A stretch of DNA of 64,000 bases from Micrococcaceae bacterium. Lineage in GTDB: Bacteria; Actinomycetota; Actinomycetes; Actinomycetales; Micrococcaceae. Each line of letters opens with the position of its first letter. Position 1 is the stretch's first letter. The translations under genes were made by a program, and so were the position numbers. Under the pieces are notes generated by a model. The model did not search any database and had not been told where the DNA came from. It saw nothing but the letters and a program-made list of their open reading frames with translations. The DNA lies in the NCBI GenBank assembly GCA_052084925.1, contig JBQDEV010000015.1:7795-71794 (forward strand), read 5' to 3'. Shown here piece by piece: positions 22,930-63,498 of the stretch.

Positions 22930-23002
22930 GCCTCAGTAGCTCAGGGGATAGAGCAACCCTCTCCTAAAGGGTAGGTCGTAGGTTCGAATCCTATCTGGGG
23001 CA
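22930..23002 (+). tRNA. tRNA-Arg (anticodon CCT)
   Basis: Hand-folded. Acceptor GCCTCAG/CTGGGGC (one G-U pair). D arm GCTC-AGGGGATA-GAGC. Anticodon stem ACCCT/AGGGT with loop CTCCTAA. T arm GTAGG-TTCGAAT-CCTAT. Discriminator A. No encoded CCA. Confidence 0.85.
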
Positions 23003-23082
23003 CGACCGATCACTCCTGCCGTAGACAGCCCCGACGCTGATCCACCCCGCAGGTTGCTGACCGCAACGATGAGGTAGAGAAG

Positions 23083-44300: not shown

Positions 44301-44377
44301 TGGTGGATCTTACTGGACTCGAACCAGCGACCTCTCGCGTGTGAAGCGAACGCTCTAACCAACTGAGCTAAAGATCC
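44301..44377 (-). tRNA. tRNA-Val (anticodon CAC), CCA encoded
   Basis: The reverse complement reads GGATCTTTAGCTCAGTTGGTTAGAGCGTTCGCTTCACACGCGAGAGGTCGCTGGTTCGAGTCCAGTAAGATCCACCA. Acceptor GGATCTT/AAGATCC, anticodon loop TTCACAC, T loop TTCGAGT. Confidence 0.9.
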
Positions 44378-51924: not shown

Positions 51925-52755
51925 TCAGACAGCATCCCATGCCGTGAGAAAAATAGGTTCTACCGCCTTAGACGAAAGCCCGGCTTCCTTCAGTAATTCC
52001 GCAGCCAGTGTTCCCACAAGCAACGCGACCATGTGATGCGTGCTGAGATCTCCATGCTGTATTGGCGGTGTGTCCAGACCGACCCGATCAGCTTCGGTCT
52101 TCGGCGCGTAGGCAACTGCCAGGTGTGCTGTCGCATGCGTGTACTGAGTCTCCTCACGCCAAGCGGTGTACAAGCCGAGCGTGATGGGCACTGCTTTCGC
52201 TGCGTCGGTGACGGCTTTCACCTGTTGCTTCAGGTCCTTGTCTTCCATCATGTCTGCTACGACGCTCTCCATTGCACTGAGATCGATATCGTGGTCGTAA
52301 CCCATCTCTTTAAGCGTGTCGAAGAAGCCGCTTGTGAGGTTCTTTTCTCGGGCAATGAACGTTTCGAGCACCGCCCCGCGCTTGTCTACTTCCAGCGTTC
52401 GGAGCCAGAGCAGGCGGAACGCGATCTCTGCGAATGCGCGACGGTTCGGCGCGGCCGCGTGAGCGAGCCCCTGAGCTGTCAGCGTTGCGATCACGCGGGA
52501 TTGGTCATACGCTGCCCGCATCCAGCCGATAATGAACTGAGAGTCGTACGCTGCTGGAACATAGGAGAGGTCAAGGGCCAACATTTGCTCGGCCGTCGCG
52601 ATGATGCGGGCTGCCTCTTGTTGCAGCGGGCTCAGGCGCGCCGCTCGCCGTTCCGCTTTTGCTCGCCGTCCGCTCATGCTTTCAACGTTACCCGTAGGCT
52701 GGTGCTCAGCGGGGCTTCCCCAGTTCAGTCTCCTGGCTGTTATCCGTGATGACAT
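51925..52755 (-). CDS. Hypothetical all-alpha protein, first gene downstream of the RT pair
   Basis: 276 aa (249 aa if ATG 52677 is used). No catalytic motif recognised. A helical core with GLAHAAAPNRRAFAEIAFRLLWL is vaguely reminiscent of DUF5677/AbiV-type proteins, from memory and unverified. Confidence 0.5.
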   Translation of the reverse strand: MSSRITARRLNWGSPAEHQPTGNVESMSGRRAKAERRAARLSPLQQEAARIIATAEQMLALDLSYVPAAYDSQFIIGWMRAAYDQSRVIATLTAQGLAHAAAPNRRAFAEIAFRLLWLRTLEVDKRGAVLETFIAREKNLTSGFFDTLKEMGYDHDIDLSAMESVVADMMEDKDLKQQVKAVTDAAKAVPITLGLYTAWREETQYTHATAHLAVAYAPKTEADRVGLDTPPIQHGDLSTHHMVALLVGTLAAELLKEAGLSSKAVEPIFLTAWDAV

Positions 52756-52962
52756 CGACAGCTGAGAACCCGATGCCTACCTGCACTTTGGATAGGGCCT
52801 CGACCGGTAGGGCTGAACGGATCGACCGGATCCGGGCGTTGTCAGATCTGACTCGCACCGGATTCCGTCGTATGAGAATTAGTCGGGAGTTCGATGCCGC
52901 TCGCTCCCGTGCGCCCGTGTGTCGAAGTCAATGACTCCGTGATTGCGGTCATGGCTGCGCCT

Positions 52963-55011
52963 CTAGTATACGAACTGGATCGACTTCAGGAGCAACCGTT
53001 CGTAGTAGTGCTCGCTTGCGTCCCAGGAAAACATGGACGGTGTCCTTTGGCTCGATCTGAGACTCTCAACCTGCCTCTTGGAGGCTTCCCCACCCATCGC
53101 CTTCGAGATTTCCTTCGTCGAGGCCCCGGGGAACATGGGGAGGCTAAGTAGAAGAATCGCACGAGCTGTCTCGTGCTCGGGTTGGTGACCGCCTTGCTCG
53201 ATCAGCACCCTTGCCCGATCCAGAAGCCCACGTTTTAGGGCGCTATTCGAGTCAGGGTTCTGGAACCTGCGAAGTAGAGTGAGTACGCCAAATACATCAA
53301 GGTCGCCGATCTTCTTCCCTCGACGCTCGAGGAACGATAGCAAGGTCTCCTCGGGGATCTTCGGATCTACGAATATGAGGCAGTCCAGGAGGAGTAAGGT
53401 GTGCGCTCCGAATGAAGCCTCGTCCTGCACCGCATTAAGCTGCGCAATGATCTCTCGGGCAACTTTGTCGGAAAACTGATCGGTCTCAAGCTTTCCCAAC
53501 CCGTTCACCTTCAGCTCACCCATAGAAGCTGCCACCATCCGTGTCAGTTTCACACTGTGCGACACCGAAGGAGCACCCGAGTAGATGAAGATTGCAACGT
53601 CCAAGACAGCCACAAGGTACTGAACGAGCTTCAACCGAGTTGCATGGATCGTTTTGGGATCTCCGGCTTCGACCGCCGCGTTCAGACACTTCCGGAACGC
53701 TCGGACACTCTTGTCCCTACGACGCCCGAGTTCGTACAGGTAGGAGTTTGCCAACTCACCGTGCTCAAGACCCGTATCCATGAGGAGAGCCTTGTAGTCA
53801 AGGATCGCTTTGCCGGACGGAAAGTACAGGCTGGCTTTCGTCGGTCCAATGTCGGGATCGTACTCATAGTGCGTACGCCGTTTGAGATCCTCGCGGATTC
53901 TCACCTTCGCAACAGACATATGGGATTGCAGCGGCGTATCGAAGTGACGCTGCTTCTGTTCGTTAAGGTGCAGTTTGAAGGTAGACAGCTGCGCAGCAAG
54001 AATCTCCTCGACGCGAGAAGCCATGTGAGGATCAGCCAGGAAGACGAAATAATCGTCCACGTATCGCATGACTTCGTAATTGGTCCCACGATTCAGACCA
54101 ATACTTGCCAGCTCTCGTTCGATCCTTACGTCTACTTCTTGCAGGATGATCTCAGCGAATACTCGCGAAAGCTCAGGTCCGATGATGATCCCGCTGGTCT
54201 CGGCATAGTTGACGTACTGCATGAGGTGATCAAATTTGTCGCCAAACGTTTCCTTGGTACCACGCCTATTTTTGCTGGCGCGGACGCCGTTGGTGACCCA
54301 TGAGACGGTGTGTGTATAAACGCTGTCGAAGCACTTGGAGACGTCTGCGCGCATAAGGTGGGGATATTTGCGTTCGCAGGCCTGGAATTCCGGCGACGAG
54401 TAGAAGCGGTTGATGTTGTTGTATCTACGGTAGCTGAAGTATGAGGAAACGTGCGTGTACTCGAGGTCGGATTGCTCGACGCCGTATGATTCTCGATCGA
54501 TGATGCCGTCAAAAATCGAGCTTGTCTTGGCTTGAAGTCTTGCGACCCTGTGAGGGTGCCTGATTGAGAAGCTACTTCGGTTCGTGTAATAAAGGATCGA
54601 GTCTCGGTGCTCGTGAATAAATGACGCCATTTGCACCATCGAGTGAGGGTGCGGGACCGATAGCTCTCGCGACTTTCCGTTGTTGCGTCGTGATCGGAAC
54701 TTGTAGGGGTGCCGAAGGTCGCAGTTTTTCTTGCCGCCACCACTGAGGTTGAACTCGATTGTCTTGTTGTCGTCAAGGAGGCAGCCCGAGCCTAGGCTGA
54801 TCGGATCGAAGATGAACTCGAGCCAGGATTTCTCAGCCTCACTGAGCCTCGATTTCAGTACGGTGAACTTGTTCTCTCCGGTCCAGTTGAATTTGAGCCA
54901 CCGAAGAAATTCGTATAGTCGCGTGATGTCGAATGGGATCGGCACCTCGTAGGGCAGAATCTCGGATGTCAGCGCACGTAGCGGGTCGCGCTTGGCTACG
55001 CGATACTTCAT
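52963..55011 (-). CDS. Defence-type reverse transcriptase with long helical C-terminal domain (UG/Abi class; UG8-like candidate)
   Basis: RT motifs RADVSKCFDSVYTH, SGIIIGPELSRVFAEIIL, catalytic MRYVDDYFVF, and HLNEQKQ. About 330 aa of alpha-helical C-terminus. No intron maturase or endonuclease domain. Its ATG overlaps the stop of the upstream RT (ATGA). Confidence 0.8.
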   Translation of the reverse strand: MKYRVAKRDPLRALTSEILPYEVPIPFDITRLYEFLRWLKFNWTGENKFTVLKSRLSEAEKSWLEFIFDPISLGSGCLLDDNKTIEFNLSGGGKKNCDLRHPYKFRSRRNNGKSRELSVPHPHSMVQMASFIHEHRDSILYYTNRSSFSIRHPHRVARLQAKTSSIFDGIIDRESYGVEQSDLEYTHVSSYFSYRRYNNINRFYSSPEFQACERKYPHLMRADVSKCFDSVYTHTVSWVTNGVRASKNRRGTKETFGDKFDHLMQYVNYAETSGIIIGPELSRVFAEIILQEVDVRIERELASIGLNRGTNYEVMRYVDDYFVFLADPHMASRVEEILAAQLSTFKLHLNEQKQRHFDTPLQSHMSVAKVRIREDLKRRTHYEYDPDIGPTKASLYFPSGKAILDYKALLMDTGLEHGELANSYLYELGRRRDKSVRAFRKCLNAAVEAGDPKTIHATRLKLVQYLVAVLDVAIFIYSGAPSVSHSVKLTRMVAASMGELKVNGLGKLETDQFSDKVAREIIAQLNAVQDEASFGAHTLLLLDCLIFVDPKIPEETLLSFLERRGKKIGDLDVFGVLTLLRRFQNPDSNSALKRGLLDRARVLIEQGGHQPEHETARAILLLSLPMFPGASTKEISKAMGGEASKRQVESLRSSQRTPSMFSWDASEHYYERLLLKSIQFVY

Positions 55012-56393
55012 CGAGCTCTTCCTTTCCAGATGCTCACGATCTGCTCGATTCGCTTCTGTCGGAACCTGAGAAATGTGTGGTTTGCAAACATCTCAACGAA
55101 CGAGATTTGCGCCATACGATCATTCATCTTCTTGGGCATCTTCGAGGCGTTGCTCTCGAGGAACGTTTGAAGAATCTCATCGAGTTCTGAGAGCTCATCT
55201 GCATCGGGAGCGAGCGCGCTGTTGGAGAAGTAAAGTCCGATAGCGACGTTACTCTTCGAGTTCAGGAGTTTGGTGTTTCCCGCGAGATACCGCACGCGAT
55301 CGAGGAGCAGGCCGTTGTGCCCATCGTTGGGAGAGGCTGGGTTCGGCGAGGTGTCTAACCAGACTTGCAGTGCCTTCTCAAGCCTCAAAACACGTCGCGC
55401 CTTGCGCTTTGTTGTCAGACCGGTAGTGAGACTGCCTCCGGCACGACAGAAGCGGTATCCGAGGTATTCGAGCTCCGTATTCGAAGGATAGTCTCCGCTC
55501 TCGCTGGTGACGAAATCCATCGTCTTTTCTTCGTTGAGAGCAAGCTGGAGCTCGTTCAACTCGGTAACGACTGCGTTCTTCACCTCAATGAGATGGTTCT
55601 CGCTTTCGAGGACCATGATCACGTCGTCTACATAACGTGCGTAGAACAGAACCCCTGGGTGCGTTTTTAGCTTGGAGTCGAAACGACTGAGATACAGCTC
55701 TGCGAGGTGTGAGCTGAGTCCGACGCCTCGCGGTAGCCCGATATTGGACCCTTGAAGTGCTTCGTATTCACTGAGCAAGCGATTGACAAGCTGGATGGTG
55801 ACTCTGTCGAGATCGGCATAAATGGCAAGGCGTTCAGTGAGCACGCTGTGGGGTATGGACTCGAAGAACTCCTTGACATCAACTTTGTAGATGGCATGGA
55901 GATACCCCTTACCGAGAGCTGCCTGGAGTGCTCGCACGATGCTGTTGCGGCTGGGGGCGTCTAATCGTGCAGCGCGCTTGACAGCATCTGCCGCTTGCTT
56001 CGCAGGGTAAGCGATGTACGTCTCAGGGGCGATGCGATAGGTGCGTCTCTGCTTGGGCCCAACCCGGGGACCTTCTCTTAGAGCAAATGTGAACTCGTCT
56101 GCGGACAGCCGTTCTTCAAATTCGAGAAGAGCCTTTTGCATGGCCGCTTCAACAGCCTCGTCGCGTTCTTTACGCAGTTCTTGCCTGTCTTCGCTGTAGT
56201 TTTTTCGTGCGTCGTCGCGAGCCTGTTTGTCTTCAAGTCGAGTGATCTCCTCCAGAAATCGCTCGCGCCTCTCTCGTAACGCCCGGGTCACACGTCGAAC
56301 GTGCGGGTCAATGCGGCTGATGTCCCGCCCACGGCGGTTCTCACTCTCGGCCAGCTCGATGAAGCTGCGAAGCGTGTACGGGATTTTCTTCAC
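55008..56393 (-). CDS. Defence-type reverse transcriptase (UG/Abi class; UG3-like candidate)
   Basis: RT motifs KVDVKEFFESIPH, IGLPRGVGLSSHLAELYL, catalytic YARYVDDVIMV, and ALNEEKT. Charged coiled-coil-like N-terminus. I prefer GTG 56393 (GAGG 7 nt upstream) over the tracked 56486. Confidence 0.8.
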   Translation of the reverse strand: MKKIPYTLRSFIELAESENRRGRDISRIDPHVRRVTRALRERRERFLEEITRLEDKQARDDARKNYSEDRQELRKERDEAVEAAMQKALLEFEERLSADEFTFALREGPRVGPKQRRTYRIAPETYIAYPAKQAADAVKRAARLDAPSRNSIVRALQAALGKGYLHAIYKVDVKEFFESIPHSVLTERLAIYADLDRVTIQLVNRLLSEYEALQGSNIGLPRGVGLSSHLAELYLSRFDSKLKTHPGVLFYARYVDDVIMVLESENHLIEVKNAVVTELNELQLALNEEKTMDFVTSESGDYPSNTELEYLGYRFCRAGGSLTTGLTTKRKARRVLRLEKALQVWLDTSPNPASPNDGHNGLLLDRVRYLAGNTKLLNSKSNVAIGLYFSNSALAPDADELSELDEILQTFLESNASKMPKKMNDRMAQISFVEMFANHTFLRFRQKRIEQIVSIWKGRAR

Positions 56394-56537
56394 GAAGCTA
56401 CCTCGATCCTCGATCTGCCCCCAGGAACACAGATGTGGACGTGAGCGAACAGAGACTCTCGCCGCTGTTGCTTGGCGTCCCACCACTCTGCACTGGGTGC
56501 TTCCGTCCCAGCGCTCCTCAACTCAACCGCTGCGGGC

Positions 56538-58257: not shown

Positions 58258-58971
58258 TCAGTTGAACTGGAACGTCCGGTAAGAGCTCTGCACGTTGAAA
58301 CGGCGACCCTCCTTCCGTCGCTGAAGGAACCCCGCGACTGTGTCAATGTCTCTCGGGCGCATGCCCAATTCCCGGCACTTTGCGCGCACTTGCTCGACGG
58401 TGATCGGAACCCAGCGATCCGGCCGATTCATCATGTCCGCCTTGAGCTTGTGTTCTTCGTTCCACTTCAATCCTGACGAGTACCCAGCCGCCATAGAGGC
58501 AATGTGCTCGAGAATTCCCTCGACCCCGTTCGGTAGAGGCTCTCGCTCCTGAGCATCGGCTTCCCGAGTCGTCGGCGGCAGAGTTGAGTCGCGCAGAAGT
58601 TGCGCGGGGTTGGCATCTTCGACCCATTCCACTGTCTCTTCCTCGTTCCACTCAATAACGGCAAGCGCATCCGCCTCAACACCCCACAGTTCGTTCAGGT
58701 GCTTACGATCAGGCCAGGCATAGAGGACTCGATGTCCAGCAAGAGCCCCAGTCGAGAGTCCTCGCCAGCTCAGGTGCAGCACCCCAGGTCGGGTGACCAA
58801 GCGTTTCAGGCTGTCGCCGTGGAACTGCTTCTGCGGTGTGACAACCACGACCGACCCGCCGGGCTGCTCGAGCAGCCATTTGATCGCGCGCATGTTCTGT
58901 GGTTCGCGGGATGTCTCACCTTCACTCAATCGAGAGATAGCTACGGGAAACTGGTAAGCGCTGGAAGTCAT
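58258..58971 (-). CDS. Hypothetical protein (no recognisable family)
   Basis: 237 aa. Good RBS (AAGGAG 7 nt upstream of ATG 58971). Two-domain appearance separated by an acidic Pro/Thr linker. Confidence 0.55.
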   Translation of the reverse strand: MTSSAYQFPVAISRLSEGETSREPQNMRAIKWLLEQPGGSVVVVTPQKQFHGDSLKRLVTRPGVLHLSWRGLSTGALAGHRVLYAWPDRKHLNELWGVEADALAVIEWNEEETVEWVEDANPAQLLRDSTLPPTTREADAQEREPLPNGVEGILEHIASMAAGYSSGLKWNEEHKLKADMMNRPDRWVPITVEQVRAKCRELGMRPRDIDTVAGFLQRRKEGRRFNVQSSYRTFQFN

Positions 58972-59089: not shown

Positions 59090-60271
59090 TCAGCTTGCCT
59101 TCCCGAATGCTTGTTCCAGGAACTCGGCTGTGATCGGGTTCACTGCCTCGTTGCGGCGAATGTAGTGCTCTCTCGTGATCGATGGGTCGCTGTGGCCGAG
59201 GAGTTCGGAGGCAAGCTGCAGTCCTCCGATTTCGTTGATCGCTGTTGCGGCGGTCCGGCGGAAGCGGTGCGGGGTCACGTCTGCGACCCCGGCTTTATCC
59301 ATGACGTCGCGGAGCTGCCTGCGGACGTTGTTGGTCGTGTGCGGCGTCCCGACACGGGTCGCGAACAGCAGCGCGTCCGGGTGTGTGAAGCGGATCTTCT
59401 TGAGTCGCGCTTTGATCGCACGGAGCGCGAACCCTGGTAGGGCGACTCGTCGAACAGAGCGGGCCGTCTTGGGGTGATCCTGTCGGTGCGTGGGCTCGCC
59501 TTTACGACTCACGATCGTTCCCGAGATCCGCACGGACGGGATCGGAGCGTCCAGATCAAGGTCTCCGAGTCGGATCGCGAGGAGCTCTCCGATGCGGGCG
59601 GAGGTACCGAGCATGACTTCGACGATCTGCCCCAGTTGCCCATCCGGCTTCGGGCCTGCCTTGATCAGGCGTTGCTCCCACGCGCTGATGCCAGTGCGGA
59701 TGGCTTTGAGCTCGTCCCAGGTGAAGATGTCCGGGGTGCGTGCGGGGCGGCGGAGCCGGGAGACATGGTCCATCGGGTTGCGCGGGATGACTTCGTGCCG
59801 CACCGCGAGCGAAAGGACGAGGCGGAGAACGACTCGGGCTTGACGTGCCCGGTTGTAGCTCTTCTTCGCGAGTTGCTTGAGGAAGTAGTCGCAGCGTGCC
59901 ACTCCGATCTCGCGGAGCGTGACCTCTTTGAAGAACGGCAAGACGAGGGTGCGCATGTTGCGCTCGTAGAGCAGCCTGGTCGTTGGCGAGAGCCGATCCT
60001 CGAGATGCATGTCTTCAAGCCAATAGGACACGAGCGCCGGGAAGGAACTGTCTGCGCTCATCCCCGAGAACCCTGGATGGAAGAGATCTCGTTCGGAGAG
60101 CTTCTTCTTCAGCGCGCGCTCCGCGCTGGGCCTGGTCGCACCGGTGACTTGGACGTGTCGCCCCTTCCCATCCCAGTCGCGGTATCGCGTGCGAGCGACG
60201 TATCGTCCACCGTCGGTGCGGCGGGTGGTGATGATGCCGAAGGTTCCGATCGGAGTGCGGGGTCTAGCCAC
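59090..60271 (-). CDS. Tyrosine-type site-specific integrase
   Basis: Arm-binding-like N-terminus (GRYVARTRYRDWDGKGRHV), SAM-like core-binding domain, and catalytic residues in TSARIGELLAIR ... HRFRRTAAT ... LGHSDPSITREHYIRR. GTG 60271 with GGAGG upstream. Confidence 0.88.
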   Translation of the reverse strand: MARPRTPIGTFGIITTRRTDGGRYVARTRYRDWDGKGRHVQVTGATRPSAERALKKKLSERDLFHPGFSGMSADSSFPALVSYWLEDMHLEDRLSPTTRLLYERNMRTLVLPFFKEVTLREIGVARCDYFLKQLAKKSYNRARQARVVLRLVLSLAVRHEVIPRNPMDHVSRLRRPARTPDIFTWDELKAIRTGISAWEQRLIKAGPKPDGQLGQIVEVMLGTSARIGELLAIRLGDLDLDAPIPSVRISGTIVSRKGEPTHRQDHPKTARSVRRVALPGFALRAIKARLKKIRFTHPDALLFATRVGTPHTTNNVRRQLRDVMDKAGVADVTPHRFRRTAATAINEIGGLQLASELLGHSDPSITREHYIRRNEAVNPITAEFLEQAFGKAS

Positions 60272-60642: not shown

Positions 60643-62397
60643 TTAACCTTCGTCGAGATCGATAGAAAAGTGTAGTCGTTGACCAAGGATGCTGCCGGTT
60701 TCGTCACCATCGTGGAGTCTGAGCACGATCGCGTCATCGAAGATCGCTCGGTCAGTGAACTCGCCCCAGGGAACGTGATCGCTATTTACTGTGAGGAGGT
60801 GCTGGTAGCCATACTCAGTCGCTGACGCAGCAGCAATTTCAATGGCTCGAGCGGTCTGTCTCTCATCGACGTCGGCGAAGATCGCGCTGTCATGGATGAG
60901 GAAGCCAGGGCCTCGGTCGTCGCTCGCGAGATCTTCGCTCAATGCGATGTCGTAAGCGAAGATGGCCATCAGGTGGACGCCCCCCGATCCGGTCTTCGGG
61001 AGCACCACCTTGAACTGCATGCCGCTCTTTCCTGGGGACACGCGTAGGTCGGCAGGTTCGCCGTAAAGAGCTTCCATGATCTCGCCGAACCGGGCAACGA
61101 TCCCTGCGCGACGCTCGAATCTCTCCTGCATGTCGAGTTTCGTCCGAGTGACAAGGTCGAGTTCGTCAGATTTCAGCTTGGACTTACGGTCGCTCAGATC
61201 GCGGAGGGTTTGGATCTGCTCTTCCACCTGGGCAACTTCAACTTGTGATTCGGCGAGGCTGCGCTGCAGTGCAACGAGGTCGTCGAGCGCTCCACCGGTT
61301 CGCAGAAGCTGCATGTCTTGCTCTTGCTGCTCAGCGAGACGTGCTTGCTCGCTCTCACGCTGCAGGATTCGTTCACGGAGCCGACGGGTCTCTTCTGCGA
61401 GGTAGGCCGCGCGGTTTGTAGTGATCTGCCCCTGGAACTCCGCTGCTTCATCAAGGCTACGGACGATTGCGTCGCCTAGGACGATGCCAGCTTCGGCGAA
61501 GAGCCGTTCGACGTTGAGGTCGCTCGAGGTGAACTCGTCCTGCACCTGCGACTCATACAGTGCGAGCTGCTGCCGATCCGCAAAGTTCTCATTGCCGAGG
61601 GCTTTGATTCGCTGGGTGCTGTCCTGAACCCGCGACTCAATGTCTCGGTATTCGGGTAGGACTGAGAAGGTACTGATGTCCTTCGTCAGTCTTTCTGCGC
61701 GACGTTGGAGCCGCACGAGCTGCGGTTCCAACGCTGCGATGCGCGATTCAATCGAGTTGTCTGGATCGTCGGCGAGCGCGACGCGTGCCTTGCGGTCCCG
61801 GAGGTTCGCCCATTCCTTTGCGAATCGCCAGTCGAGGTTCAGCAGGTAGGCGTTTTCTGCCTGCACTGCTTCGGCGGCCTGGTTCGCGAGGGTGCTGAAC
61901 GGTCCGAGCAGGGAGTCAGCACGAAACCGAGCGAAGTGGCGTATGAGGCTGCGGAACGTGGGCGGGTCCGCAGGCATCCCGTCGCGAACGAAGCATTCAC
62001 GTCCAAGCCAGTTGGTCCACTTGCGAGTGCCCACTGTTGCGGTGCCGTCGTCAGCGAGATCCTTCTGCTCGACAATCCCTGCAGCGACCACGCCGCCTTC
62101 GAGGTGGATCTGACCGGAGGTATCTGGGCTGCGCGATGCCAGCACAGTGACCCCGGCTCGGGTAGTTAAGGACAGCGTGAAGTACCAGTTGTTGCCCCTC
62201 ATCTGTTCGAGGCGGTCGCTCATATTCGCGCCCAGGCAAAAGTCGATGAGCGCGATGGCGGTAGTCTTACCGAGCCCGTTTCGCGAGTCGGTCTTCGTGG
62301 CTTCTTTGGCGCGATCTGCAACGACGATGTTGAGTCCATCGTTGAAGCTGATTGACCGGAACCCCGAGAAACTCGCAGTGAGCGAATTCAAGCGCAT
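60643..62397 (-). CDS. ABC-three-component (ABC-3C) system ATPase, DUF2326-type
   Basis: ATG 62397 (MRLNSLTASFSGFRSISFNDGLNIVV). Walker A SRNGLGKTT, a long coiled-coil insert, and a C-terminal PGFLIHDSAIFADVDERQ (Walker B/D-loop region). Confidence 0.75.
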   Translation of the reverse strand: MRLNSLTASFSGFRSISFNDGLNIVVADRAKEATKTDSRNGLGKTTAIALIDFCLGANMSDRLEQMRGNNWYFTLSLTTRAGVTVLASRSPDTSGQIHLEGGVVAAGIVEQKDLADDGTATVGTRKWTNWLGRECFVRDGMPADPPTFRSLIRHFARFRADSLLGPFSTLANQAAEAVQAENAYLLNLDWRFAKEWANLRDRKARVALADDPDNSIESRIAALEPQLVRLQRRAERLTKDISTFSVLPEYRDIESRVQDSTQRIKALGNENFADRQQLALYESQVQDEFTSSDLNVERLFAEAGIVLGDAIVRSLDEAAEFQGQITTNRAAYLAEETRRLRERILQRESEQARLAEQQEQDMQLLRTGGALDDLVALQRSLAESQVEVAQVEEQIQTLRDLSDRKSKLKSDELDLVTRTKLDMQERFERRAGIVARFGEIMEALYGEPADLRVSPGKSGMQFKVVLPKTGSGGVHLMAIFAYDIALSEDLASDDRGPGFLIHDSAIFADVDERQTARAIEIAAASATEYGYQHLLTVNSDHVPWGEFTDRAIFDDAIVLRLHDGDETGSILGQRLHFSIDLDEG

Positions 62398-62398
62398 G

Positions 62399-62626
62399 TC
62401 AAACTTCCCATCGGAGAACGCCAGAATTGATGGTGACTGCACCGATCATGAAGAGCAGCGTCAGCGCTTCGGTGAACGAGTCGAAAGATGCATCCGTTGC
62501 GCTGCTTCGGTAGGCGTGCCAGAGCTCGCTAACCGTCGGGTTGCTGTCGCGTAGGGGCAGGATAGTCGCTGCGCGACCGAGGATGCTATCCGAAGCGGGC
62601 ACGTATTTGGTCGGGAGGATCATCAT
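62399..62626 (-). CDS. ABC-3C middle component
   Basis: 75 aa: MMILPTKYVPASDSILGRAATILPLRDSNPTVSELWHAY ... LTLLFMIGAVTINSGVLRWEV. The start overlaps the effector stop (ATGA). Its stop lies 1 nt before the ATPase ATG. Confidence 0.65.
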   Translation of the reverse strand: MMILPTKYVPASDSILGRAATILPLRDSNPTVSELWHAYRSSATDASFDSFTEALTLLFMIGAVTINSGVLRWEV

Positions 62627-63498
62627 GCCGGTGCCTCGAAGACATCGCACACCTGGAACAAGTGGCAGAGGACTGCTGCGGCCGCTGCATGCAACACGAA
62701 GAGCCGACCTCCATCTGTCTGGGGAGAGATGGCGCTGCTGGCACCGAAGTCAATCAGTGAGAGGAAAAGTGCGTCACCCTTCGCGCCGCTGGCAACGAGT
62801 CGGTCATACTCGCTAACAAATCCTGCTCGCAGCCGTTCCGGGAAGCGTGAGGAGAGCTGTGCCTGACGGCGGATGTACTCGGCTACCTGAGGAGCCTGAG
62901 CGAGCCCGATGTTCATTGTGGGGCGAATAGCGTCAGTGAGCTCGTTCGTGTCCATCTTCGTCTGCGGTGGCACTGCGATCATCGGAGTCGATGGAAGGTC
63001 GATGTCGCCGTCCGCGAAGGCGTTGCAGACGATCTGTAGCTCCGCGAACGACACCTGCGTCGCCCCAGCCGACAGCCGATCAGTGACTGCTTTTTCGGCT
63101 GCGCGCTTCCACTCTTTGAGCGTCTCGACCGGATAGTCCGAATCGATCTTGTCGACGAGGCTGTGATGGTGCGCGCAGAGGACGAGCAGATTCGGATAGC
63201 TATCTCGCTGTGCGGGGGTGAGTGCGGGATTAGGACGAGGTCCGTCGTCTGAGGATCCTTCGATGTGCGCAATCTGACCGAGGATCACAGGGCCGTCAGT
63301 CTTGAACTCAACGATAGCCGAGCCGCAGTTCGGGTACGGGCAGAAGTGACCCGACGTGAGGAACAGTTGTTTCAAGGTCAAGTGCGAGTAGTTCCGTGCC
63401 ACCTGACCTCCCCGTCTGGTTGCGTGATTCTGGTACGACGCGGCGAGCCCACGTAGGGACTCGCCATGTCCCATCCTCTCATGTGTCCGAACTCGCAA
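62623..63498 (-). CDS. HNH endonuclease fused to an ABC-3C C-terminal (CTD) adaptor domain: predicted effector
   Basis: CPYPNCGS ... IAHIEGSSDDGPRPN ... YPNLLVLCAHHHSLVD (HNH with Zn-ribbon Cys/His). About 170 aa of helical C-terminus. First gene of a three-gene overlapping operon. Confidence 0.7.
   Translation of the reverse strand: MRVRTHERMGHGESLRGLAASYQNHATRRGGQVARNYSHLTLKQLFLTSGHFCPYPNCGSAIVEFKTDGPVILGQIAHIEGSSDDGPRPNPALTPAQRDSYPNLLVLCAHHHSLVDKIDSDYPVETLKEWKRAAEKAVTDRLSAGATQVSFAELQIVCNAFADGDIDLPSTPMIAVPPQTKMDTNELTDAIRPTMNIGLAQAPQVAEYIRRQAQLSSRFPERLRAGFVSEYDRLVASGAKGDALFLSLIDFGASSAISPQTDGGRLFVLHAAAAAVLCHLFQVCDVFEAPA

Follow-up and report, generated by a model that had tools for sequence, protein, structure and literature searches.

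A probable type 3 defence-associated reverse transcriptase system with a compact template RNA on a low-GC island of a Micrococcaceae bacterium

What kind of system is encoded by two reverse transcriptase (RT) genes that lie side by side on the minus strand of a 64,000 nt stretch of DNA from a Micrococcaceae bacterium (contig JBQDEV010000015.1 of assembly GCA_052084925.1, positions 7,795–71,794 of the forward strand; ‘the window’ below)? An earlier note on this DNA proposed a type 3 defence-associated reverse transcriptase (DRT3) module made of a UG3 and a UG8 enzyme or, alternatively, a new two-RT family. We compared the locus with family profiles, solved structures and 80 species-level loci encoding Drt3b relatives, the latter taken from 430 genomes with a match and including 17 from Actinobacteria (L001–L015, L019, L076). 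With a probability that we put at about 0.88, the locus is a complete DRT3 system, arranged as drt3a, drt3b and then a non-coding RNA (ncRNA), all on the minus strand. This island-borne DRT3 is canonical and uncharacterised, is already recognised by routine annotation and adds no new principle; what is added here beyond annotation is the ncRNA with its template and pseudoknotted compact fold, a revised start for Drt3a and the finding that the layout is canonical throughout the sampled Actinobacteria.

The assignment is carried in the first place by the family models. The downstream gene, drt3b (52963..55011, minus strand), encodes a 682-residue class 1 UG/Abi RT of the UG8 group with a C-terminal alpha-helical repeat domain: the protein scores 442 bits against the NCBIfam equivalog NF041748 (cut-off 350 bits), with residues 12–682 aligned to profile positions 1–647; its top PADLOC match is the Drt3b model (9e-148), with the Drt6, Drt4 and AbiK models far lower; and its closest solved structures are two Drt3b chains of the PDB, 9z6y_H from a Drt3a/Drt3b complex and 26cz_A of EcoDRT3b (~1e-56). 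The upstream gene, drt3a (55008..56393, minus strand), encodes a class 2 UG/Abi RT of the UG3 group that scores 269.8 bits against NF041747 (cut-off 200 bits), has the Drt3a model as its top PADLOC match (1e-86, the runner-up being UG17 at 1.4e-28) and finds its closest solved structure in the Drt3a chain 9z6y_A (1.7e-17). These matches bear out the DRT3 proposal, and the NCBIfam models for group II intron, retron, AbiA, Drt2, Drt4 and Drt5 enzymes, a search of the kind that the earlier note had suggested, all fell far below their cut-offs. A single-RT identity of the DRT4, DRT6 or AbiK type was considered and rejected, given a Drt4 score of 134.6 bits against a cut-off of 450 and a translationally coupled partner RT. 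The identical Drt3b protein is present in NCBI, where it is already named Drt3b, as are dozens of actinobacterial homologs.

Both ORFs (open reading frames) are present on the minus strand as first described, and the six RT motifs quoted for them were all located at their expected positions: KVDVKEFFESIPH at residue 201, GLPRGVGLSSHLAELYL at residue 250 and YARYVDDVIMV at residue 282 of Drt3a (numbered on the 492-residue ORF), and RADVSKCFDSVYTH at residue 221, GIIIGPELSRVFAEIIL at residue 274 and MRYVDDYFVF at residue 315 of Drt3b. The catalytic YVDD is intact in both enzymes, beginning at residue 285 of Drt3a (55623–55634) and at Y317 of Drt3b (54052–54063). What needs correcting is the start of the upstream ORF, which had been placed at 56486. 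The longest drt3a ORF (55008..56486, minus strand) does comprise 492 residues counted from that first GTG; translation nevertheless most likely begins at an internal GTG (56393), for a protein of 461 residues, because that codon is preceded by GAGG at a distance of 7 nt, the similarity to relatives starts there (at about residues 18–36 of the long ORF) and public gene calls agree. At the other end of the gene, the drt3a stop overlaps the drt3b start in an ATGA (55008..55011, minus strand) that can be read directly in the sequence, in keeping with the translational coupling already suggested. The identical junction occurs in six of the related loci (L001–L005 and L007); more broadly, Drt3a stands immediately upstream of Drt3b in 79 of the 80, and the same order holds in E. 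coli.

The residues on which E. coli DRT3 depends offer a finer comparison. In E. coli the YxDD catalytic motif of both RTs is required, and within Drt3b E22 acts as the dA gate, R241 as the dC switch, R71 in base stacking and Y666 in priming (PMC13174585). When the window protein was aligned with E. coli Drt3b by phmmer and BLAST, with roles taken from that study, E22 (codon 54946–54948, this and the following on the minus strand) corresponded to E22, R115 (54667–54669) to R71, D223 (54343–54345) to D182, F228 to F187, R283 (54163–54165) to R241, the YVDD to Y276–D279 and the terminal Tyr682 (52966–52968) to Y666. Of 81 sequences (the window protein plus the 80 loci), at least 80 keep each of these, and all of the E. 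coli Drt3b residues of experimental importance are conserved in the window protein. The AlphaFold model of Drt3b (predicted local distance difference test score, pLDDT, 81.5; predicted template-modelling score, pTM, 0.82) places a long helical domain after the RT domain; its C-terminal ~330 residues are almost wholly helical, in agreement with the helical C-terminus first described for this ORF. The Foldseek PDB library is older than the DRT3 entries, and the fold was compared with other class 1 UG/Abi enzymes: the model aligns over its full length with DRT4, DRT6 and AbiK at target-normalised template-modelling scores of 0.60–0.68.

The third component is an RNA. In E. coli DRT3 an ncRNA downstream of drt3b is essential, and its 5′-ACACAC-3′ loop templates the synthesis of poly(dT-dG) by Drt3a (PMC13174585). 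The earlier note had reported no msr/msd-like context, which holds for a retron RNA (there being no Rfam match); the DRT3 ncRNA that follows drt3b was overlooked. Its core (52885..52958, minus strand) begins a few nucleotides past the drt3b stop codon, so that an RNA of ~75–85 nt lies directly 3′ of the gene. A covariance model (R1) trained on the ten nearest sequences matches a single site in the window, at 52868–52965 with 93.3 bits, and the RNA is conserved in 17 of 17 actinobacterial drt3b loci; no Rfam family matches it. The putative Drt3a template, 5′-ACACAC-3′ (52917..52922, minus strand), lies 40 nt past the stop, unpaired between the hairpin P3 and the 3′ strand of the helix P1. It is found 27–49 nt past the stop, in a conserved context, in all 17 actinobacterial loci, and at most 120 nt past it in 74 of the 80 species loci. 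A minimum free energy fold likewise leaves ACACAC unpaired and predicts the P3 and P4 hairpins.

Covariation among relatives supports these helices, including a pseudoknot, and with them a conserved structured RNA that would expose ACACAC behind drt3b. On a model-guided alignment 88.4% of helix cells are paired, and 11 pairs have changed on both sides, compared with 4.0 ± 1.3 in shuffled alignments (0 of 500 reaching this number) and no more than 4 when the pairing was slid as a control. P1, which closes the template domain, pairs GC[A]GCC (52953..52958, minus strand) with GGCGC (52911–52915). In the close clade 96% of its cells are paired, and because P1 is nearly invariant there its support comes from the comparison across phyla, where the enclosing helix has diverged in sequence (GGCGCT/AGCGCC, GAAACTGC/GCGGTTTC, GAATAAAC/GTTTATTC). 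The 5′ strand of P2, ATGaCCGC (ATGACCGC; 52945..52952, minus strand), pairs with GCGGCAT (52894–52900) in the loop of P4 and so forms the pseudoknot: 90% of its cells are paired, three of its seven pairs have changed on both sides, and cognate strands form 5.46 contiguous Watson–Crick pairs compared with 4.17 for swapped partners, a value equalled in none of 5000 random reassignments. Its sequence ranges over ATGACGC/GCGTCAT, CTGAGGC/GCCTCAG, CCGGGC/GCCCGG and CTCTCGGG/CCCGAGAG. The P3 hairpin (CGGAGTC-att-GACTTCG; 52923..52939, minus strand) stands immediately 5′ of the template, and five of its six pairs have changed on both sides across the clade. The P4 hairpin (GGGAG...CTCCC; 52885..52908, minus strand), whose loop holds the 3′ strand of P2, has 88% of cells paired and two pairs changed on both sides. 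The matches listed from a metagenome scan with a degenerate pattern of this ncRNA were chance matches only, none scored by the covariance model. On some contigs a 36-residue ORF has been called over the ncRNA (12060–12170 in L202 and 10956–11066 in L206, equivalent to ~52842–52952 in the window); it is probably an annotation artefact that arises from the unannotated RNA.

Current interest in DRT3 stems from Drt3b, the first polymerase for which templating by amino-acid side chains, in place of a nucleic acid, has been shown. By homology with its E. coli counterpart (Wang et al., 2026, PMC13174585; Deng et al., 2026, in the summary given by PMC13314766), the window locus would probably work as follows. 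The operon transcript, or a 3′ end processed from it, would supply the RNA, and Drt3a would bind this RNA and copy ACACAC repeatedly into poly(dT-dG). A 6:6:6 assembly is expected of a DRT3 system; Drt3b would assemble as a hexamer through its alpha-repeat domain, prime on the hydroxyl of its C-terminal Tyr682 and add alternating dC and dA without a nucleic-acid template, yielding a protein-templated poly(dC-dA) strand; here E22 is the predicted dA gate and R283 the predicted dC switch, while R115 would stack on the incoming base. The two strands could then anneal to form poly(GT/AC) duplex DNA, the accumulation of which would bring about abortive infection.

Several observations weigh against the assignment and are best considered together. 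The proteins are distant from those of the reference E. coli locus (NZ_AP027487.1): Drt3b shares 34% identity over the RT domain with WP_062891751.1, and Drt3a 27% with WP_000934358.1 (BLAST, E 4e-32). The fold energy of the ncRNA alone is not significant (z = −1.45; the remainder of the intergenic region, also not significant, gives z = −0.38), and the cross-phylum shuffle statistic for P1 is weak, at 5.6 compared with 4.7 bp. The actinobacterial model R1 misses the E. coli ncRNA, with a single weak match that falls inside an ogr/delta gene, and the case for homology between the two RNAs is therefore built on where they lie, on the template motif and on topology, not on alignment. Such a miss fits Mestre et al. 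(2022; PMC9226505), in which a CACACA motif is all that the RNA subgroups have in common. Lastly, in E. coli RecBCD restrains the GT/AC DNA, and phage inhibitors of RecBCD, for example Gam, release it and bring on abortive infection (PMC13174585; PMC13314766); this regulatory step is one described for E. coli, and an actinobacterial host may have a different counterpart.

How far do these points favour another explanation? The one that survives best, although we regard it as unlikely, is that the locus is a decayed or silenced DRT3 remnant, a non-functional passenger carried passively by its island. It would account for the outcome of a sigma-70 consensus scan, which gave no useful promoter-like or terminator-like signal; the consensus in question is of the E. 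coli type and does not cover actinobacterial promoters. Otherwise, judging from the sequence, the system is apparently intact, in both ORFs and their coupling, in both YVDD motifs and in the catalytic, gating and priming residues mapped from E. coli Drt3b. Moreover, compensatory changes among relatives maintain the RNA helices, the same protein sequence was found on at least 24 public contigs, and one public contig (JBQDKA010000014.1 of GCA_052095675.1) carries the identical gene order.

Less probable still is a new two-RT family that merely resembles DRT3 and has a different product or mechanism. The low pairwise identities would suit such a family, as would an RNA far more compact than that of E. 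coli, the atypical UG3/UG8 arrangements described for Terrabacteria by Mestre et al. (2022; PMC9226505) and the N-terminal ~95 residues of Drt3a (a protein of 461 residues here and 398 in E. coli), which have no counterpart in the BLAST alignment. Against it, both proteins pass the equivalog cut-offs over their full length, the ACACAC template and all template-gating and priming residues are conserved, and the relatives of Drt3b form a continuous series that grades into proteobacterial and Bacteroidota DRT3; as the alternative raised in the earlier note, a new family found no backing in the profile searches. That the RTs belong to a group II intron or a retron rather than to a defence pair is scarcely credible, for although Pfam matches are to the generic RVT_1 and there are sub-threshold matches to group II intron RT (TIGR04416, 80.5 and 40.1 bits for a cut-off of 300) and retron St85 RT (NF038233, 43.8 bits for a cut-off of 235), Pfam yields RVT_1 only, with no maturase or endonuclease domain, as the earlier note had argued against an intron, and no Rfam family is matched at E ≤ 1 in 50.5–64 kb save for one chance match to an internal ribosome entry site.

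We accordingly retain DRT3 and turn to its place among known systems. E. coli DRT3, for which Gao and colleagues in 2020 are reportedly the source, shares with the window locus the order drt3a, drt3b and downstream ACACAC ncRNA, the YVDD of both RTs, the complete set of Drt3b residues (E22, R71, D182, F187, R241 and the C-terminal priming tyrosine, in E. coli numbering) and carriage by a mobile element that encodes a tyrosine integrase. The two differ in several details: the window Drt3b has a ~44-residue insertion near its N-terminus; the priming tyrosine is penultimate in E. coli and the last residue here; a 3-nt gap separates the genes in E. coli, whereas they overlap in ATGA here; the E. 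coli template lies ~130 nt past the stop, and its longer RNA leads into an intrinsic terminator, whereas the window RNA is more compact; and the E. coli system is accompanied by P4-satellite genes, that of the window by AbiE on an island of a high-GC actinobacterium. Part of the window Drt3a N-terminus (encoded at 56105–56393, minus strand) is a strongly charged stretch, for example RERRERFLEEITRLEDKQARDDARKNYSEDRQELRKERDEAVEAAMQKALLEFEERL, which is kept in the close actinobacterial clade. With the class 1 RT-alphaRep enzymes DRT4 (UG15), DRT6, AbiK and Abi-P2, Drt3b shares the fold of an RT joined to an alpha-helical repeat and, by homology, probably protein-primed, template-independent synthesis; those enzymes, however, are single RTs that make random or untemplated single-stranded DNA, whereas Drt3b has a partner RT and the E22/R283 gates that would specify alternating dC and dA. 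Drt3a, for its part, is a class 2 RT like those of DRT9 (UG28), DRT10 (UG17) and DRT2 (UG2), and it would be expected, as with DRT9 and DRT10, to make repeated copies of a short template carried by a structured ncRNA. In these three systems the ncRNA is upstream of a single RT and the products are poly-dA, other tandem repeats or concatemeric complementary DNA, whereas in the window the RNA is downstream of the second RT and its template is ACACAC.

Across Actinobacteria the arrangement seen in the window is regular. In all 17 sampled loci drt3a and drt3b are adjacent on the same strand with an ACACAC RNA downstream, and annotated Drt3b relatives occur in Microbacterium, Brevibacterium, Cryobacterium, Salinibacterium, Leifsonia, Nocardiopsis, Agromyces, Arthrobacter and other genera, so that the actinobacterial rarity implied in the earlier note was overstated. 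Actinobacteria belong to the Terrabacteria. For UG3/UG8 pairs of ‘Terrabacteria’, Mestre et al. (2022; PMC9226505) describe genes that often lie on opposite strands, an RNA that precedes UG8 and a lack of conservation on the downstream side; the window and the 17 actinobacterial loci, from the same host superphylum, are canonical instead. It seems reasonably likely, if well short of secure, that Actinobacteria hold a canonical DRT3 lineage with a minimal RNA of ~75–85 nt, in contrast with this published view, and we would give similar credence to a minimal RNA composed of one pre-template hairpin, a closing helix and a lone 3′ hairpin whose loop takes part in a pseudoknot. If true, this RNA could be the smallest natural scaffold for repeat synthesis by Drt3a, operating in hosts whose RecBCD/Gam circuit may be wired differently, and so compact a variant could ease structural or engineering work.

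The conservation extends further, in that the template and the Drt3b residues E22, the two arginines and the tyrosine are kept in Actinobacteria, Proteobacteria, Bacteroidota and other phyla. A 2026 review raises the question of whether there are DRT3 subtypes with other repeat outputs; this cross-phylum conservation bears on it, and no different repeat template was seen in the 80 species loci. Within this common pattern a few loci stand apart. Gilliamella and Schmidhempelia (L024, L033) have CACACA only, ~77 nt past the stop, and in three Flavobacterium loci (L031, L042, L071) the template lies, as in E. coli (L208), ~130 nt past it. One acidobacteriotal locus (L065) is without the C-terminal tyrosine and without any ACACAC, and its system may be degenerate.

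The genomic setting of the window DRT3 is that of a defence island. The window is low in GC from ~51.2 kb onwards; the G+C content of drt3a is 0.547 and that of drt3b 0.538, compared with 0.67 for positions 1–50000, much as the earlier note had it in describing a ~53% GC island in a high-GC host. On the minus strand the order is PDC-M68 A/B, a tyrosine integrase (59090–60271, minus strand; Pfam), a 237-residue protein, AbiEi/AbiEii, drt3a, drt3b, the ncRNA and a 276-residue protein, beyond which lie host genes for a CdaR-like regulator and a glycerate kinase. The neighbours are thus those first named, namely an AbiE pair upstream, with PADLOC values of 7.6e-79 for AbiEii and 4e-52 for AbiEi and agreement from Pfam, and a protein of no known function downstream. 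DRT3 was probably acquired horizontally on this integrase-bearing, low-GC island. The AbiEi–AbiEii–Drt3a–Drt3b block recurs at 75–88% protein identity in Microbacterium sp. YY-01, Aurantimicrobium minutum and a Gulosibacter metagenome-assembled genome (L001, L002 and L004), the first of which alone also has a match to the integrase (86% identity). Because the block recurs and the integrase is matched in Microbacterium, these comparisons suggest that AbiE–DRT3 is a mobile element common to several actinobacterial families. A search for direct repeats at the island ends returned short, probably chance repeats, and att sites and boundaries were not identified by it. The window also contains a tRNA-Arg(CCT) gene (22930–23003) and a tRNA-Val(CAC) gene (44301–44377), neither of which is an obvious integration site because neither adjoins the island.

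Three further features of the island deserve mention. First, the 276-residue ORF (51925–52755, minus strand) that comes directly after the ncRNA is matched by nothing in PADLOC, NCBIfam or PHROGs, and by DUF5677 only below threshold (E = 0.0079). It was considered as a third DRT3 protein and rejected: because it is present in none of the 80 related loci, it is taken as island cargo and not as a DRT3 component. Second, a candidate PDC-M68 module of the ABC-3C type (60643–63498, minus strand) lies beyond the integrase. It comprises a 599-residue DUF2326 ATPase that matches PADLOC PDC-M68B (2.3e-191) and a 291-residue nuclease-like protein that matches PDC-M68A (5.5e-92) and, weakly, ABC-3C CTD10; public contigs also have a small MC6/MC7 middle component, and an insertion sequence (rve) transposase further along. 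Third, no family of Pfam, NCBIfam, PADLOC or PHROGs matches the 237-residue ORF (58258–58971, minus strand) that lies between the integrase and AbiEi; at the equivalent site the Gulosibacter locus encodes a partial relative of it, with 51% identity over 76 residues.

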